In this document: positions 17,478 to 58,369 of the stretch, in pieces
Position numbering within the stretch: the stretch's first letter is position 1
Layout of the letters: each line of letters starts with the position of its first letter
UHGV virus genome: UHGV-0350099
Origin: a virus
Direction: 5' to 3' (one strand)
DNA length: 61,496 nt
The notes under the pieces: generated by a model
The model's input: the letters and a program-made list of their open reading frames with translations, nothing else
Databases searched by the model: none
What the model was told of the DNA's origin: nothing
Program-made: the position numbers and the translations under genes

Positions 17478-17552
17478 GATGGTGTAGCTCAGCGGTAGAG
17501 CAGTTGGCTGTTAACCAACTGGTCGGTGGTTCGAATCCACCCACCATCGCCA
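17478..17552 (+). tRNA. tRNA-Asn (anticodon GUU)
   Basis: Hand-folded cloverleaf: acceptor GATGGTG/CACCATC, D-stem GCTC/GAGC, anticodon loop CTGTTAA, T-loop GGTTCGAATCC, 3' CCA. Confidence 0.8.
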
Positions 17553-17557
17553 ATTTA

Positions 17558-17644
17558 GGGGAGTTAGTCCGTAGGGGCAGCGGGGTAGACTGTAAATCTA
17601 CTGTCATTGCGACTCGGGTGGTTCGACTCCATCACTCCCCACCA
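17558..17644 (+). tRNA. tRNA-Tyr (anticodon GUA), long variable arm
   Basis: Acceptor GGGGAGT/ACTCCCC, anticodon loop CTGTAAA, T-loop GGTTCGACTCC, CCA end; architecture like bacterial tRNA-Tyr. Confidence 0.7.
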
Positions 17645-17648
17645 AATT

Positions 17649-17724
17649 GCCGGTTTAGCTCAGTTGGTAGAGCGCCTGCCTTGTAAGCAGGATGTCAGCG
17701 GTTCGATCCCGTTAACCGGCACCA
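17649..17724 (+). tRNA. tRNA-Thr (anticodon UGU)
   Basis: Acceptor GCCGGTT/AACCGGC, D-stem GCTC/GAGC, anticodon arm CCTGC-CTTGTAA-GCAGG, T-loop GGTTCGATCC, CCA. Confidence 0.75.
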
Positions 17725-17732
17725 ACACAACA

Positions 17733-17944
17733 GGTAAGAGCATTGGGCGAATCGGCGATACTGACCCACAAGCCCGTAAATCGATAGAGTCAGACCAGTG
17801 CTCTTACCGTTGTGAGGAAGTGCAGCTCTTTGAAGCAACCAGAAGATAAGCATCTGGCTTCACAACACAACGATAAGATCATTACGGTTAATCGTCGTTC
17901 ATGTGCACAATGACTGGTCGAAAGGTAGTGATCTTACCGTTGTG
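17733..17944 (+). ncRNA. Three further long hairpins of the same family between tRNAs
   Basis: GGTAAGAGCATTGG/CCAGTGCTCTTACC (17733-17807); GTTGTGAGG/CTTCACAAC (17809-17857); CACAACGATAAGATC/GATCTTACCGTTGTG (17856-17944). Confidence 0.35.
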
Positions 17945-18044
17945 ATGAATGCACAGGCTGATGTGCCGCAACTACAGTAGTGCGCGCTTTGCGGGGCTTG
18001 CTACAACCCTGTGTCGGAGTTCAGCACCGACCATCACAATAGCT

Positions 18045-18131
18045 GGAGAGTAGGGAGCATGGTGCTCAAGCGGTCTTGAAATCCGTCCCATTGTGCAAAC
18101 GATGATGGTTCGATTCCATTACTCTCCGCCA
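18045..18131 (+). tRNA. tRNA-Ser(UGA)-like, long variable arm, possibly degenerate
   Basis: Acceptor GGAGAGT/ACTCTCC + CCA, anticodon loop CTTGAAA, T-loop GGTTCGATTCC; anticodon stem has a T-T mismatch and D-arm is atypical. Confidence 0.45.
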
Positions 18132-28372: not shown

Positions 28373-28644
28373 AAGAATTATGGCGCTTGTTGAGGAAGTC
28401 ACTCCTCTTACGCACTTTGTTTTGCCATGCCGGCAGTTAGCTTCTGCCTTTGACTATTCATGCGGCAACCCCGCATTTCGCCACAATGGGCAATTCACTT
28501 TTATGGAATAAACTGGCCGTTGTGTCGATTTAATTAGCATGGCCTTACCATGCTAATTTATTCAACTTGTACAATCCTACAAATCTATCCACTCAGGCTT
28601 ACACCGTCTTCGTTATTGTAGAAATGAGGATCATCAGCGTTGAA

Positions 28645-28860
28645 TCAGCTTAGAGCAACGACATTTGCTGCTGCTGGGCCTTTAGCACCATTCTCGATAG
28701 AGAATTCGACCTGCTGGCCTTCTTCCAAAGTGCGGAAATTATTACTCTGAATTGCCGAAAAATGTACAAAAACATCTTTACTGCCATCAGCAGGAGAAAT
28801 AAAGCCAAAGCCTTTATCAGAGTTAAACCATTTTACTAAACCAGTCATTTTATTAGACAT
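28645..28860 (-). CDS. cspA: Cold-shock protein, CspA family
   Basis: [38 protein letters not shown]... with RNP motifs KGFGFI and VFVHF; start trimmed to MSNK. Confidence 0.9.
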
Positions 28861-29075
28861 AGATATTACCTTCTTAATTTTGTGAGCCACATAGTGCGGC
28901 GAGAATTTGATCTGTATAGATTGGGACTTACTTAGGCACTTAAGGAGGAGACTCACGAAGAAGGGAAATCAGAAGATAACACTGAACTGAGACTGCTTTA
29001 CTAAAACTGCTTACATAAGGTCTGTCTTGCAAACCAACGATGCTATTAACGCATACCCCTTCTTTTCATGCAACC
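28861..29075 (-). promoter_or_regulatory. cspA-type promoter and long 5' UTR
   Basis: On minus strand reads TTGCAT -35-like, TTAAT -10-like and a cold-box-like TGCAAGACAGACC; about 180-nt leader as in enterobacterial cspA (recalled from memory). Confidence 0.5.
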
Positions 29076-38708: not shown

Positions 38709-39764
38709 CTATTTGCGAGTCTTTGCCTTGCGCAACTCTTCGAGAAGCGCCAGTTCTTCTTTACTCAACATGACCATTTTGCCTTCTTTTTCGTCAGGCA
38801 CAACGTCGATAATGTCATCTTGATTCTCATCTGGGAGGCTATATTCCGTCTCATCATTATCGATTTTTGTTGATATTTGTGCCTGGCGTAACTTTGGCCG
38901 CCTATAGTGGATGACGAAGTAGACCGAGTTTCCGCGCTTAACTTCCGTGTAATCGAGATATCCTATCTCTCGCAGCTGTTCCATAGCCTTTCTTACCGTC
39001 GCATTCTGAGTAATAGTGCGACTTGTCAGATTAAGTCTGGCGCGTAAACGGGCTAGTGATATTGGTGCCGGATCAGGCGGCAAACTTTCAATAAAAGTAT
39101 AAAGCGCCTGAGCGGATTCTTTTCTTGAGAGTTCGTTTATAGCCCGGAGTTGCAGAAGAACCTTTTTGTCGAACTGGTAGAGTTCGAAAATCTTGGGATC
39201 TGCTTTCAGTTCGACCGTATCGTGCTTGACACTATATTTTGCCGTTTGCACAAGATGCGTTACGTAAAACTCATCAGAGCCTTTGCTACGGAACGAGATG
39301 GTATTTGTGGCAATACGGCTTAGCGAACTGTCCAGGCGTTTGCGTAACTTCGCTGATGACCTGGCGGTCGGAATGCCACACAGCCTTACAAACTCAACGA
39401 ACGGCAACGTGACAGTATCGCCAACGACCTTGTGTTTGGCAAACGCGTGGATTATTCCCACCCACGTTTTAAAGTCGTTATCCATATCAAGCCGAAGGCC
39501 AGAGATCCTTATGTCTTCGTACCCTTCGGCTTTTGCCAGAGACAGCTGTTTGAGTTCAGCAGAGGCATCCATAGAGACCATTTGCCCCTTTCTTCCTCTG
39601 GATGTCGATTTCAGCGTCGGAACGAAGAGGCCCAGACGCATCAAAGCAACAGGCTGAACAGTGTTATTAGTGTTAGGAACCAACGTAACAACTTCGCCTG
39701 TCTTTTTATCTGTTTCTGAAAATGCTTCAACGATCGCTATGTTTTTATTGCCGTTTTCGCTCAT
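38709..39764 (-). CDS. repA: Iteron-type plasmid replication initiator RepA (P1 RepA / RepFIB-like)
   Basis: 351 aa flanked by iteron arrays; [47 protein letters not shown] segments recalled as matching P1-type RepA (no search run). Confidence 0.8.
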
Positions 39765-39804
39765 TCCAAATGTCTCTTGTTATTCGACGGCTTTGGTGGC
39801 CTTT

Positions 39805-39930
39805 GCTGATTACAGTGGATAGTAGCACTCATCACAGCGGTTATCCTACCGTCTATAGTGGTTTTTCTCCTCTCTATAGTGGTTGCTTTGCTCCCTATAG
39901 TGGATTATTCGCTCTCTATAGTGGATATCG
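39805..39930. repeat. Origin iterons (6 direct repeats, about 21-bp spacing)
   Basis: YTCTATAGTGGWT cores at 39811, 39833, 39853, 39875, 39896, 39917. Confidence 0.7.
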
Positions 39931-39964
39931 ATCATGTCTGAAGGCAGATGGCACAACGGTTTGA

Positions 39965-40050
39965 GGTGGGCGGGGATCTTATTGGGTCTTTATGGGTCTC
40001 TTTGGTTCTCTTTGTGATCTGAATTACTGGATCGGGCCTGTGGATAAAAA
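39965..40050. promoter_or_regulatory. Degenerate GATC-heptamer region plus DnaA-box-like TGTGGATAA
   Basis: GGGATCTTATT/GGGTCTTTAT/GGGTCTCTTT/GTGATCT repeats; TGTGGATAA at 40039-40047. Confidence 0.45.
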
Positions 40051-40204
40051 TCAGAGGATTTCAAGAACAGGTAACTCTACTCTTCTGTGGATATTTAAGG
40101 ACATAAGAATCATGACTAAGAGTAGAGTTTAAAATATATCTATGTATATCAGTATGTTAATGAAGAATTAAGTCATTAAGTTATCCATAAAAGACAATGT
40201 GCTC

Positions 40205-40310
40205 TACTCTCTACAGTGGATATATACAGCTCTCCAGAGTGGTTGTTTTACTCTTCATAGCGGTTATTCAGCTCTCTACAGAGGTTTCTTTGCTCTCCAT
40301 AGTGGATGGC
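40205..40310. repeat. Second iteron set (5 repeats), part of duplicated origin module
   Basis: CTCTACAGTGG, CTCCAGAGTGG, CTTCATAGCGG, CTCTACAGAGG, CTCCATAGTGG at 21-22-bp spacing. Confidence 0.6.
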
Positions 40311-40344
40311 AACACCCTTTCAGACCAGTAACCGCAACGGCTAG

Positions 40345-40420
40345 AGGCGATCGGGGATCTCTTTGGATCTTCTATTTGATCTTACTTGGGATCTCTTATT
40401 TGGATCTATCCAGTGGATAA
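40345..40420. promoter_or_regulatory. Cluster of six GATC sites at 11-13-bp spacing plus DnaA-box-like CAGTGGATAA
   Basis: CGATCGGGGATCTCTTTGGATCTTCTATTTGATCTTACTTGGGATCTCTTATTTGGATCTATCCAGTGGATAA. Confidence 0.55.
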
Positions 40421-55540: not shown

Positions 55541-56134
55541 ATGATTGCAGCCGAAAAAATCAAACAGCGAAAGCGCGACAACTCTCTTCGTGACCTCTGG
55601 AGAACACCTGACTGGCTGTTTTCTGCCATTCAACGTTATCTTGGAGTGACATTTGATGTTGACGTTGCCTGCAACAAGGACAATGCAAAGCTGCCTAATT
55701 TCATAGGCGTTGAGCGTGATGCTTTGAAATCTGAATGGGGACAGCCAGGTACAATTGCCTTCCTCAATCCACCCTACTCCAAAATCTCCCCCTGGATTGA
55801 TGCAGCTATACGTGAGCAGGCTCGCGGAGTTACAACAGTGATGCTAATTCCTCAATCCCTAGATACAAAGTGGTATGAGCGTGCAACAGAGTGTGCGAAT
55901 GAGACGATTATTCTGTCTGGTGGCCGCGTAGCGTTTGTCGAGCCTGACGTCAATCTGGGTCAGGTAGAAGTAAACATCAACCCCGGTGGCAGTATGCTCG
56001 TTGTTTTTCGAGGATTCTGTCAGGACGCTGGGCACTCTATAAGCAAGATCCCTTTGGACGTCATGAAAAGTCTGGGAGGGTATGATCCTGCGAATGTGGT
56101 CAGAAAAAAAAGACCATCAAAGAAGGCTGCTTAG
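55541..56134 (+). CDS. DNA N6-adenine methyltransferase (phage Dam-like)
   Basis: Motif IV AFLNPPYSKI (NPPY); 197 aa typical of small phage N6A methyltransferases. Confidence 0.6.
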   Translation: MIAAEKIKQRKRDNSLRDLWRTPDWLFSAIQRYLGVTFDVDVACNKDNAKLPNFIGVERDALKSEWGQPGTIAFLNPPYSKISPWIDAAIREQARGVTTVMLIPQSLDTKWYERATECANETIILSGGRVAFVEPDVNLGQVEVNINPGGSMLVVFRGFCQDAGHSISKIPLDVMKSLGGYDPANVVRKKRPSKKAA

Positions 56135-56320
56135 TTTGTTCTGGCGTCTGTAATTAGCCTGCTTCTGTATATATAAATAACTACATATTAATTATTAATA
56201 TACGGAAACAGGCTGTTTTGTATCAGAGACTCCAGACCTGAACATCACTACAGAATCCACTAGAACCCCTTCCCAGACGCTTTAAAATCGATTTTATGAA
56301 CCACTTTAAGGAAAACTAAC

Positions 56321-56551
56321 ATGCCATACCCGACCAATGTTGTTGCGCTCGTAGAGAGCGATTTTCTGGCTAAGGCTCGTGAAATGATGAAAGACCGCGA
56401 GCAGGCTTTCAACTTGTACGAATGGGCAATTAAGTGCTTGCATCTTGGGGAACATCGCGAACTTGTTGAACAGCTTTTAGGTGAGTTGATCAACGAGGTG
56501 TTTGCCTTGAATGTTCAACTACATGGTCGAGAAAATAATCAATCGAAATGA
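56321..56551 (+). CDS. Hypothetical small protein
   Basis: 76-aa ORF. Confidence 0.4.
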   Translation: MPYPTNVVALVESDFLAKAREMMKDREQAFNLYEWAIKCLHLGEHRELVEQLLGELINEVFALNVQLHGRENNQSK

Positions 56552-57135
56552 TAGATAAGTACAAACTATTCATAAAATGAATTGTAAGTGCTAAGATCTG
56601 ATAGTTTCCAGTCGTAGACTGGAGACTCGACCTGATGGGTGGGGGTAAGCGTCACTGGCGTCAGGTTTAAAAAAGCTCACTACCAGCGTAGAACCGGTGC
56701 CGTTTAGGTGTCGGGGAAGGGGGAACCAAAGTGAGCGGAGACAAGGGTCACTTTATGATTGTCGAGTCTGGGGTGTTTCGAGAGGTTGAATCCAGTACTC
56801 CCCTTCATAAAGTGTGGGAAGATCTCGGTTCTGGGGTGCTGTCATCCATAACTTCCCAAGTCTAAGCTGGCAGTAGACTTAGGCCATAACTTTTCAGGTT
56901 ATGAAACGACCAGGTTGGTGAGGGATTTTTATACTCACCTCCCTGGGAGAGTATTACCTGAAAAGACAACCTCTCACTTCGTTCGAGGTGAACTTCACTC
57001 ACTTCGTTCGTTCAGTTCAGGTTTATAAAAACCTGTTCTGGGAAGTAATTTGTTTATTTTAATAATTATTAACACGCACGCGTGTGCGCACGCGCGAGGA
57101 AAAAAATCGGCGCGGCGCTTGATTCAGGAGTTTAT
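56552..57135. other. About 580-bp non-coding region with direct repeats and a GC-rich double palindrome
   Basis: No ORF of 60 aa or more; CACTCACTTCGTTCG tandem repeat near 56985-57015; CACGCGTG/GTGCGCAC palindromes at 57073-57098. Confidence 0.4.
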
Positions 57136-57729
57136 ATGACGACGAAGACACCAGCCCGATCGCAAGACAAAACTCGCAAAAAAGCCAAAAACAAAAATTC
57201 TCCCCGCACCAATTCCACAACGCCTGTCGTAGAGTTCAATCCCCAGCTTAAAACCGTGAAAATCTTCAGTGATGGCTCTTGCCTTAAAAATCCGGGTGGC
57301 CCGGGCGGTTACGGTATAGTTCTCCAGTATCGTGGTGAGGAACGCGAGTTCTCAGATGGTTTTCATAGCACCACCAATAACCGCATGGAGATGATGGGGG
57401 CACTTATCGGGCTGGAGCGTTTGAAATATCCATGCAACGTTATTTTGCACTCTGATAGCCAGTATCTGAAAAACGGCATGACACAGTGGATGAAATGGTG
57501 GAAACGCAATGGATGGGTGACTTCTGACAAAAAACCGGTAAAGAATGTTGATCTGTGGAAGCGTCTGGATGAGGCTGCAAGTCGACATAATGTTCGCTGG
57601 AAGTGGGTTAAAGGTCACGCCGGGCATCGTGAAAATGAAATATGTGATCGACTCGCGAAGATCGCAGCTTTTTCCGCAGCAGATATGCCTCACAAGAAAG
57701 ATATTGGTTTTGTTTACAACAAGCAGTAA
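57136..57729 (+). CDS. rnhA: Ribonuclease HI with basic N-terminal extension
   Basis: [57 protein letters not shown]; start at ATG 57136 after RBS AGGAG. Confidence 0.9.
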
Positions 57730-57747
57730 GTAAGTGTTTACCTATCA
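57727..57747. promoter_or_regulatory. Palindromic intergenic motif GTAAGTAAGTGTTTACCTATC
   Basis: Member of dispersed motif family. Confidence 0.4.
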
Positions 57748-57874
57748 TTTTAAATCATGTATCTTATCGGCGTCAGGATGACAATGTGTCGGTAAGACAC
57801 AGTTCCAGGATGGAACGAGAAAGGCGGCTGGCAATCGCCAGCCGCAACTCTTTCTGACACTGGATGGAGTCCAC

Positions 57875-58369
57875 ATGGCACGTCAAACCTATTTCACTTC
57901 TGCAACTAAACGTCCTCGTTCACTACGTCAAATTTTGGCCGAATTATTTAGCGGTCGTGTTCTGTCACGTCTTGATGAACTAGAGACTGCCGTTCGGTTG
58001 CTGAATGAACGTTTAGATAAGCAAGCGTCAGTTGTTGCGAACGTGGGGGCGATTGTTACCTCTGGTTCTTCACGCGAAGCGAAAAGTACACGGCCTTTAG
58101 TGAAGGAGAAAAACAACAAGGACAGTTCGAATGGAAAATTTTCAAAGAAAGAGGCTGAAACCAATGGCCTACGTTCTCATTATAGTTTCACTGGCGACGG
58201 TAGCCGTTCCAGCCGGCCAGAGCCTTTTGATGCCGGGTTCATCCATCACCACACCTCCGTCGACGACAATTACCACCACTCCAGTAGAGCGTCCTGTCAC
58301 TCTGGATGGGATGACGGTGGATGCGATACCTCAAGTTCATCCAGTTACTCAGGATCATGCTGTGACTAA
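57875..58369 (+). CDS. Hypothetical Ser-rich protein
   Basis: 164-aa ORF; low-complexity C-terminus. Confidence 0.4.
   Translation: MARQTYFTSATKRPRSLRQILAELFSGRVLSRLDELETAVRLLNERLDKQASVVANVGAIVTSGSSREAKSTRPLVKEKNNKDSSNGKFSKKEAETNGLRSHYSFTGDGSRSSRPEPFDAGFIHHHTSVDDNYHHSSRASCHSGWDDGGCDTSSSSSYSGSCCD

Follow-up and report, generated by a model that had tools for sequence, protein, structure and literature searches.

The window analysed here comprises 61,496 nucleotides of UHGV-0350099, a phage-plasmid of the SSU5/pHCM2 type, and our interest concerns a region of 584 bp (56552-57135) that appears to harbour the gene of a structured non-coding RNA (ncRNA), which we term type A. This region occupies a defined slot in a conserved gene order that leads from a 3'-5' exonuclease via a hypothetical protein, a Dam-type methyltransferase and an open reading frame (ORF) of 76 residues to the gap, and from there to rnhA, encoding RNase HI, and a series of small genes. 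All genes around the slot are located on the plus strand, within a module of nucleotide metabolism and replication (Table 1). A first-pass annotation, made from the letters of the DNA, had described about 580 bp without any plausible ORF at this place. This description holds, with no ORF exceeding 46 residues between the stop codon of the 76-residue ORF and the start codon of rnhA. The five largest of these small ORFs are each broken by a frameshift, a stop codon or the loss of the start in 17-45 of the 61 distinct homologues, whose DNA is more than 86% identical. While the gap is real, the conserved element that it contains is narrower and consists of a core and a promoter preceding it.

The 584-bp region is matched in 12 phage records and in 687 plasmids of PLSDB. 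Its phage carriers include the Escherichia phages CMS-2020a, PhiR41_1 and Cyrano, the Salmonella phage SSU5 and Klebsiella phages, and its plasmid carriers, which are nearly all non-mobilizable, reside in Klebsiella, Escherichia, Enterobacter, Salmonella, Citrobacter and Cronobacter. Among 5426 complete E. coli genomes the type-A element is present in 232, with 232 of its 234 places being plasmid-borne, and RefSeq contains no annotated feature at the type-A locus in these matches. The element is also carried by 52 metagenome contigs, nearly all of them genomic contigs of multiple kilobases that reach about 110 kb when complete; a search for transcript-sized contigs among them found none with the length of the predicted transcript.

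Outside the closest E. coli relatives, sequence matches start sharply at position 56626 and stop between 57104 and 57130. In comparisons with SSU5, pJN2-26 and three IMG/VR lineages, which together span E. coli, Salmonella, Klebsiella and Enterobacter, positions 56626-56739 are 83-94% and positions 56740-57048 91-97% identical, whereas the flanking methyltransferase, 76-residue ORF, rnhA and the ORF following it reach an identity of 67-80% in four comparisons, the fifth involving L127, which is more closely related on the side of rnhA. The non-coding core thus constitutes the most constrained stretch of its neighbourhood, and the conservation in related elements, whose absence the first-pass annotation had named as part of a refutation, amounts to 83-97% between lineages. 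With a constraint exceeding that on the proteins encoded around it, an RNA of about 450 nucleotides very likely plays an important part in the life cycle of the element.

Upstream of the core, a sigma-70-like promoter would direct transcription from a start site predicted around position 56604 from the location of the promoter. When the best sigma-70-type match was selected within 85 nucleotides upstream of the core in each locus, the same layout, with a -35 hexamer of the form TTnnnn, a spacer of 17 nucleotides and a -10 hexamer of the form TAnnAT, was found in all 78 element-carrying loci (46 distinct upstream sequences), the -10 hexamer ending 26-29 nucleotides before the core and the spacer being 16 nucleotides long in one locus. 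The layout is fixed despite a surrounding sequence that can scarcely be aligned between lineages. The predicted transcript opens with a 5'-terminal stem-loop, and all 18 distinct versions found in relatives fold as a hairpin at this place, with free energies between -2.8 and -15.7 kcal/mol and at least six stem sequences that are mutually unrelated. At the opposite end, the U-rich tail is not conserved in sequence but is kept in its richness in T, about 60 of 76 loci containing at least seven T per 12 nucleotides and the Klebsiella type-A lineage about five. A terminator scan lists no compact canonical terminator at this 3' end.

The 61 distinct sequences were folded with RNAalifold into a consensus of 114-118 pairs, in which 99.9% of 6951 cells are occupied by standard pairs. 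Compensatory double changes affect seven pairs (74 cells) compared to 0-2 pairs (0-4 cells) in controls where the pairing partners were displaced by 1-3 columns, and the observed covariation score was attained in none of 500 shuffles. Besides the helices marked in Table 1, a compensatory change is also found in helix 56860-69/56874-84. The alignment folds with -132 kcal/mol on the plus and -98.7 kcal/mol on the minus strand, and the predicted transcript on its own is characterized by a z-score of -5.87 relative to dinucleotide shuffles. At gathering score, Rfam 15 recognizes only cspA and transfer RNAs (tRNAs) in the whole window, both outside the RNA region, and an E-value scan of positions 56100-57900 yielded only chance-level matches of microRNA type (E ≥ 0.09) far under the gathering scores. 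The scan with Rfam and Infernal that the first-pass annotation had suggested has thus matched no family, and ARAGORN detects neither a tRNA-like nor a transfer-messenger RNA (tmRNA) element in the region.

The repetitive features that had initially drawn attention to the gap appear in a different light. An exact 13-mer, CTCACTTCGTTCG, occurs twice (56973-85 and 56998-57010), with its copies starting 25 nucleotides apart, so that the repeat is direct and not tandem as had been claimed; TRF finds no array, and the 15-mer quoted as repeat unit is present only once. The two copies of CTCACTTCGTTCG are its only matches in the window, where 0.10 would be expected by chance, and both are invariant across the 61 sequences. 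Blocks of GTTCTGGGGTG, also described as repeated, are found at chance level, with one exact copy and, allowing for up to two mismatches, 15 matches in the window compared to an expected 12.1 ± 3.2, three of the 15 falling inside the element. As described, the sequence contains the palindromes CACGCGTG (57077-84) and GTGCGCAC (57084-91), but they belong to the spacer and leader preceding rnhA and not to the conserved core of the RNA. Within the core, the segment between the two 13-nucleotide repeats, CGAGGUGA, can pair with either copy, of which RNAalifold selects the one downstream, and the alternative hairpin UCACUUC-GUUC-GAGGUGA can be read from the sequence. Since the repeat segment is invariant, covariation cannot choose between the two hairpins, and the ability of the middle segment to pair with either repeat makes a conformational switch possible. 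The last local hairpin of the core is held with altered stems in most lineages (CAGGGG/CCCCUG, CAGGGA/UUCCUUG) and is weak in the Klebsiella type-A lineage.

A second RNA appears to occupy the same slot in more distant relatives. Homologues of the 76-residue ORF that are less than 60% identical are found in 39 plasmids, and in K. oxytoca pCAV1015-111 and K. pneumoniae AR_0096 the same gene order and a similar gap length are accompanied by a gap sequence that cannot be aligned to type A. This sequence, termed type B, is common to 30 Klebsiella SSU5-like plasmids and would encode an RNA of about 430 nucleotides. It is preceded by a promoter of the same kind as in type A (TTTACT-17-TATGAT) and starts with a covarying 5' hairpin. 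Of the 125 pairs predicted for its fold, 11 display compensatory changes among just seven sequences, and the strands show the same asymmetry as in type A, with -133 versus -96 kcal/mol. Its end is defined by an intrinsic terminator of canonical form (UUCGGCC...GGCCGAAG with a tract of U7-8 behind it), which displays a compensatory change from G-C to A-U. Rfam gives no match for the type-B loci, and neither does nhmmer with the type-A profile, indicating that the two types are not linkable by sequence. A loop motif spotted by eye (GGGGG..AGCG.C) was considered as a link between them and dropped, as it is missing from some type-B members.

Table 1. Coordinates of the features discussed in the text. 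Positions refer to the window, except for the type-B RNA, which is placed in the named plasmid.
Feature	Position	Strand	Remarks
Sigma-70-like promoter	56569-56597	+	-35 TTCATA (56569-74), 17-nt spacer, -10 TAAGAT (56592-97)
5'-terminal stem-loop	56605-56625	+	Shape kept, sequence not
Type-A RNA, conserved core	56626-57048	+	417-425 nt in relatives
Helix H1	56629-67	+	Three compensatory pairs
H2 domain	56675-56736	+	Stem 56675-80/56731-36 with compensatory change
Long hairpin	56738-56826	+	Compensatory change in 56749-58/56805-14
Small hairpin	56834-47	+	
3' multi-helix domain	56851-57046	+	Closed by predicted pairing of ACUUCCCA (56851-58) with UGGGAAGU (57039-46)
Two 13-nt direct repeats CTCACTTCGTTCG	56973-57010	+	Flank CGAGGTGA (56984-91)
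Last local hairpin	57018-57035	+	CAGGUUU-AUAA-AAACCUG
U-rich tail TTTGTTTATTTT	57049-57060	+	Directly 3' of closing helix; putative 3' end or partial terminator
Type-B RNA	L159 2766-3205 (pCAV1015-111)		Also in L160, L162-L166
Dam-type methyltransferase gene	55541-56134	+	
76-aa ORF (phrog_5343)	56321-56551	+	Directly 5' of RNA slot in every case; stop codon 56549-51
Variable spacer and rnhA leader	57061-57135	+	AT-rich stretch, alternating tract, A-run, GC hairpin, Shine-Dalgarno
Alternating purine/pyrimidine tract ACACGCACGCGTGTGCGCACGCGCG	57072-57096		25 nt, strict; holds both palindromes; Z-DNA-prone
A-run	57100-06	+	
Shine-Dalgarno AGGAG	57126-30	+	
rnhA (RNase HI)	57136-57729	+	Start codon ATG; Pfam RNase_H, E = 1.6e-44
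Rep_3 initiator gene	38712-39764	-	
At least nine iterons (TCTCTATAGTGGATA-like)	39807-39927, 40208-40419		Two arrays, 21-bp phase
Four DnaA-box-like sites	40039-40420		

The properties of the two types bear on the possibility that the conserved sequence is purely a site at the level of DNA, such as a packaging signal (pac/cos), a recombination hotspot or an array of protein-binding sites, with its RNA features being incidental. Such a site could be recognized in the 3' 300 bp of the element, which are almost invariant with predicted loops included, in the presence of direct repeats and palindromes and in the cargo-replacement junctions found nearby. However, the advantage of one strand by about 33 kcal/mol and substitutions that preserve G-U, A-U and G-C pairs would be unexpected for DNA, the conserved promoter is directed into the element, the repeats are confined to two copies without tandem array and relatives with homologous neighbours hold a wholly different sequence, which again folds as RNA. 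We consider a role at the level of DNA as very improbable. A pac/cos site in particular, which was one of the candidates of the first-pass annotation, is unlikely in light of an RNA-like pattern of constraint (G-U pairs, fold on one strand) and of the distance of about 30 kb to the terminase genes in pMB3825A_2, where an identical copy of the element is found at 92.3-92.8 kb and the large terminase at 60.4-61.6 kb.

Judged from comparative sequence evidence, the presence of a genuine gene for a structured RNA is likely. General hallmarks of such genes are found in the promoter shared by 78 of 78 loci, the seven compensatory pairs and the broken ORFs, with the 3' end being clear only in type B. 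Of the candidates offered by the first-pass annotation it is thus the structured ncRNA that is backed by the data, namely by the conserved promoter, compensatory changes, strand asymmetry, a z-score of -5.9, the absence of a conserved ORF and the second RNA in the slot. A mechanism that operates in trans and depends on the fold is a more tentative proposal, to which we assign somewhat less than an even chance. For the combined statement, a stand-alone gene on the plus strand for a type-A RNA of about 450 nucleotides that acts through its fold, our confidence is a blend of both parts and leans slightly in its favour.

In the proposed mechanism, the host RNA polymerase would initiate at the conserved sigma-70-type promoter to produce a transcript that opens with a protective 5' stem-loop and then folds into several domains of the core. 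This transcript would most likely end, at least partly, at the U-rich tract around 57050-60, after the long-range closing helix. The RNA would neither serve as messenger RNA nor act as long antisense, but would function through its three-dimensional fold, probably as specific partner of a protein of the phage-plasmid or its host, for which it might be a scaffold, decoy or regulator. Its repeat region may work as a conformational switch, in which the segment between the repeats pairs with either copy. Within this scheme, the data show the non-coding nature of the region, a conservation exceeding that of the adjacent genes, the layout of the promoter, covariation of pairs in the 5' half, the asymmetry between strands, the independence from rnhA and the lack of an Rfam match, while we infer the ends of the transcript, the action in trans, the protein partner and the switch. 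Searches for antisense targets revealed a single 12-mer in the window, where about three would be expected by chance, no match with E < 0.5 and no second copy of the RNA in a complete relative of 114 kb, and none on E. coli chromosomes apart from two unexamined chromosomal places, with seeds shorter than 11 nucleotides lying beyond the search. The absence of a target above chance and of a second copy favours a fold-dependent action, probably with a protein partner. The high conservation within each type, which includes the loops, combined with the existence of discrete unrelated types, would be expected of a specificity determinant that fits a partner.

Several observations weigh against this proposal. 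The near-invariance even of predicted loops could reflect a constraint at the level of DNA, a dual constraint or spread by recombination. The helices of the 3' half, which close the domain at 56851-57046, are invariant, so that covariation neither supports nor contradicts their pairing, and covariation events are few (about three to four independent lineages) because the sequences are closely related. The adjacent 76-residue protein gave no informative fold match. Both the start site and the 3' end of the type-A RNA are predictions. Finally, read-through into rnhA appears plausible, given the lack of a canonical terminator at this 3' end and of any good rnhA promoter in the spacer.

Such read-through is at the heart of the main rival explanation, a leader that acts in cis, where the promoter would drive rnhA and the block downstream and the RNA would control read-through, either as an attenuator or riboswitch-like switch formed by the exclusive repeat hairpins or as a processive antiterminator of the kind of HK022 put. 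In line with a leader, all surrounding genes are located on the plus strand, the interval up to rnhA contains no convincing promoter, the 3' end of type A consists of only a U-rich tract behind a long-range helix, the 13-nucleotide repeats permit two mutually exclusive hairpins and the arrangement of promoter, RNA, terminator and genes in type B resembles put/nut leaders. Against it stand relatives where rnhA was lost or replaced with the RNA being intact, which is the case in three loci of type A (L141, L124 and L121) and two of type B (L165 and L166). In these five independent relatives, homology stops directly after the A-run and other genes take the place of rnhA. The RNA persists even where a convergent gene is inserted behind it, and is thus not merely a leader of rnhA. 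The latter is a neighbour of the RNA and not required in cis. The type-B terminator is strong, with a tract of 7-8 U, the length of 420-450 nucleotides far exceeds that of known put RNAs (about 70 nucleotides) or riboswitches, no cis-regulatory family of Rfam is matched and the RNA is present in a single copy, whereas HK022 contains both putL and putR. We thus regard a leader acting in cis as unlikely.

A related comparison concerns the immunity and antitermination RNAs of temperate elements, including the CI RNA of P4 (seqA/B/C), c4 of P1/P7, the CA RNA of N15 and HK022 put, which share with type A the location of an ncRNA behind a promoter and ahead of a co-directional block. In the P4 seqA-seqB-seqC system two direct repeats are both complementary to the intervening segment, as found here, and discrete sequence types among related elements are also a property of these leaders. 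In contrast, type A is 5-6 times larger, its repeats, spaced by just 25 nucleotides, belong to a single hairpin region, the C4 model of Rfam gives no match, no complementary target is found elsewhere in the genome and the module serves replication and not immunity.

The location of the element beside rnhA in a replication module also raises the possibility of a lytic origin, likewise a candidate of the first-pass annotation. It would be primed by an R-loop in the manner of ColE1 RNA II or of the R-loop origins of T4 and mitochondria, where the transcript would stay hybridized near the AT-rich spacer and A-run and the RNase HI encoded next to it would trim the primer for the replisome of the element. 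Invariant G-runs on the strand corresponding to the RNA (GGGTGGGGG at 56637, GGGGAAGGGGG at 56714) and an AT-rich stretch that is followed downstream by a purine A-run (GAGGAAAAAAA, with CGAGAAAACAAAAAC as counterpart in type B) would suit this function, and rearrangement junctions cluster directly after the A-run. The primer of ColE1 ends in a similar A-run. The resemblance to the ColE1/pMB1 system extends to RNA II, which is likewise structured, about 0.5 kb long, endowed with G-rich segments and transcribed from a sigma-70 promoter of its own, and to RNase H and Rop, to which an adjacent RNase H gene and the gene of a small helical protein would correspond here. The similarity ends with the absence of a match to RNAI (RF00106) or any RNA I-like antisense RNA in Rfam on either strand, and the sole minus-strand promoter-like site near the element (56610->56581) is directed away from it. 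In type B a canonical terminator and in type A a U-tract precede the A-run, which argues against a primer RNA having to run into an origin. Examined for an origin of the iteron/DnaA type, the element contains only the two 13-nucleotide repeats and neither a DnaA box nor an iteron array, and the GC skew does not switch at this site. An origin for the plasmid mode is instead found 16 kb from the RNA, where a Rep_3 initiator gene is combined with iterons and DnaA-like boxes (38712-40420). The phage-plasmid encodes its own replisome set, with DnaE, a DnaB-like helicase, primase, ligase, a 5'-3' exonuclease and a DnaQ-like exonuclease, the DnaE-type polymerase with its primase and helicase being encoded about 60 kb away, and RNase HI is explained by the removal of Okazaki primers together with the FEN-type exonuclease and ligase. 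Together with the dispensability of rnhA in cis and a covariation with G-U pairs throughout the 5' half that points to a free folded RNA, these features make an R-loop origin improbable.

The small protein encoded ahead of the RNA does not strengthen the analogy to ColE1. Homologues of the 76-residue ORF are found in 728 plasmids. The ORF matches the PHROG family phrog_5343 and is confined to SSU5-like plasmids (29 clusters among 5.8 billion proteins). An AlphaFold model with a pLDDT of 80 consists of three helices, and Foldseek detects no match with E < 6 in the PDB and thus no similarity to solved folds including Rop, so that an initially considered role as Rop-like RNA-binding helical hairpin is unsupported. 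In a relative from Moellerella, the 76-residue ORF is followed by neither RNA nor rnhA, indicating that the RNA slot is not universal.

With respect to established RNAs, we classify the element as a new family, in fact two, of a known kind, the large structured ncRNAs of temperate mobile elements. In this kind, ROOL and GOLLD of phages and prophages and the bacterial OLE and raiA are similarly untranslated multi-helix RNAs of several hundred nucleotides with covariation. Type A differs from them in its lack of a match to covariance models of Rfam 15, its residence in phage-plasmids of Enterobacteriaceae and not in Firmicutes and others, its location away from tRNA genes and the existence of two mutually unrelated sequence types in the same locus. 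Equally, no match was obtained to other Rfam 15 families, including HEARO, CsrB, RNase P, tmRNA, group I/II introns, riboswitches, C4, RNAI and sok. The messenger RNA of the type I toxin system hok/sok is comparable as a plasmid RNA of about 400 nucleotides with long-range pairing between its 5' and 3' ends and possible metastable hairpins, but type A contains no conserved small ORF, the translations of its ORFs are not hydrophobic and Rfam reveals no sok-like antisense. Among searchable papers, we found none that connects SSU5, pHCM2 or pECOH89 with an ncRNA encoded at this locus or with an origin located there.

Large structured RNAs of bacteria and phages are rare and have repeatedly proved to have unusual functions. 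With a length of about 430-450 nucleotides each and a common slot in the replication module, the unrelated types A and B could also define an undescribed class of RNAs. Its members might be the lineage-specific part of a ribonucleoprotein or R-loop device that governs replication of the element, its lytic switch or its compatibility with related elements residing in the same cell, or alternatively a catalytic or cage-forming RNA. Discrete sequence-unrelated types at a fixed position are a pattern typical of specificity determinants, and we rate this broader proposal as unlikely. As the hosts E. coli and Salmonella are genetically tractable, the function of the RNA is directly testable. SSU5/pHCM2-like phage-plasmids are common in clinical Enterobacteriaceae, some carriers bearing genes of extended-spectrum β-lactamases such as CTX-M, and annotation pipelines would overlook a gene in hundreds of sequenced plasmids.

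From residue 38 onward, the RNase HI encoded behind the RNA shows an identity of about 60% to its chromosomal counterpart, and a search of genome contigs with the protein returned only chromosomal housekeeping rnhA loci. It starts with an extension of about 37 residues (57136-57250) that is rich in lysine and arginine. As matches to the chromosomal protein mostly begin near residue 38, this extension appears to have no chromosomal counterpart. It might bind nucleic acid. In the spacer between RNA and rnhA, the lengths of the alternating tract and of the A-run (5-9 A) vary even between copies with an identity above 98%. Both look like slippage-prone sequence in the rnhA leader, and positions 57072-57106 may be a hotspot of slippage and recombination. 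No convincing promoter was identified in the spacer (57061-57135), either by eye or in a promoter scan. On the 3' side of rnhA, the interval 57730-57874 contains two hairpins with GGA loops resembling CsrA-binding sites (GUCAGGAUGAC near 57775 and UUCCAGGAUGGAA near 57803), a weak match to the CsrB model (E = 0.048) and a perfect GC hairpin of 9 bp (57824-45).

Further structured sequences are found elsewhere in the window. Between the methyltransferase gene and the 76-residue ORF, a long AT-rich inverted repeat (56135-56241) is predicted to form a hairpin of about 100 nucleotides (-34.9 kcal/mol, z = -5.3), which is also palindromic in SSU5, as detected by BLAST on the reverse strand. It might function in termination, in regulation as a hairpin or in the unwinding of DNA. 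Positions 17478-18131 contain four clustered genes for tRNAs (Asn-GTT, Tyr-GTA, Thr-TGT and Ser-TGA). On the minus strand, positions 28620-29038 match the thermoregulator in the 5' untranslated region of cspA (RF01766) at full length with 187.6 bits, indicating that the phage-plasmid possesses a cold-shock gene and also the RNA thermometer belonging to it.

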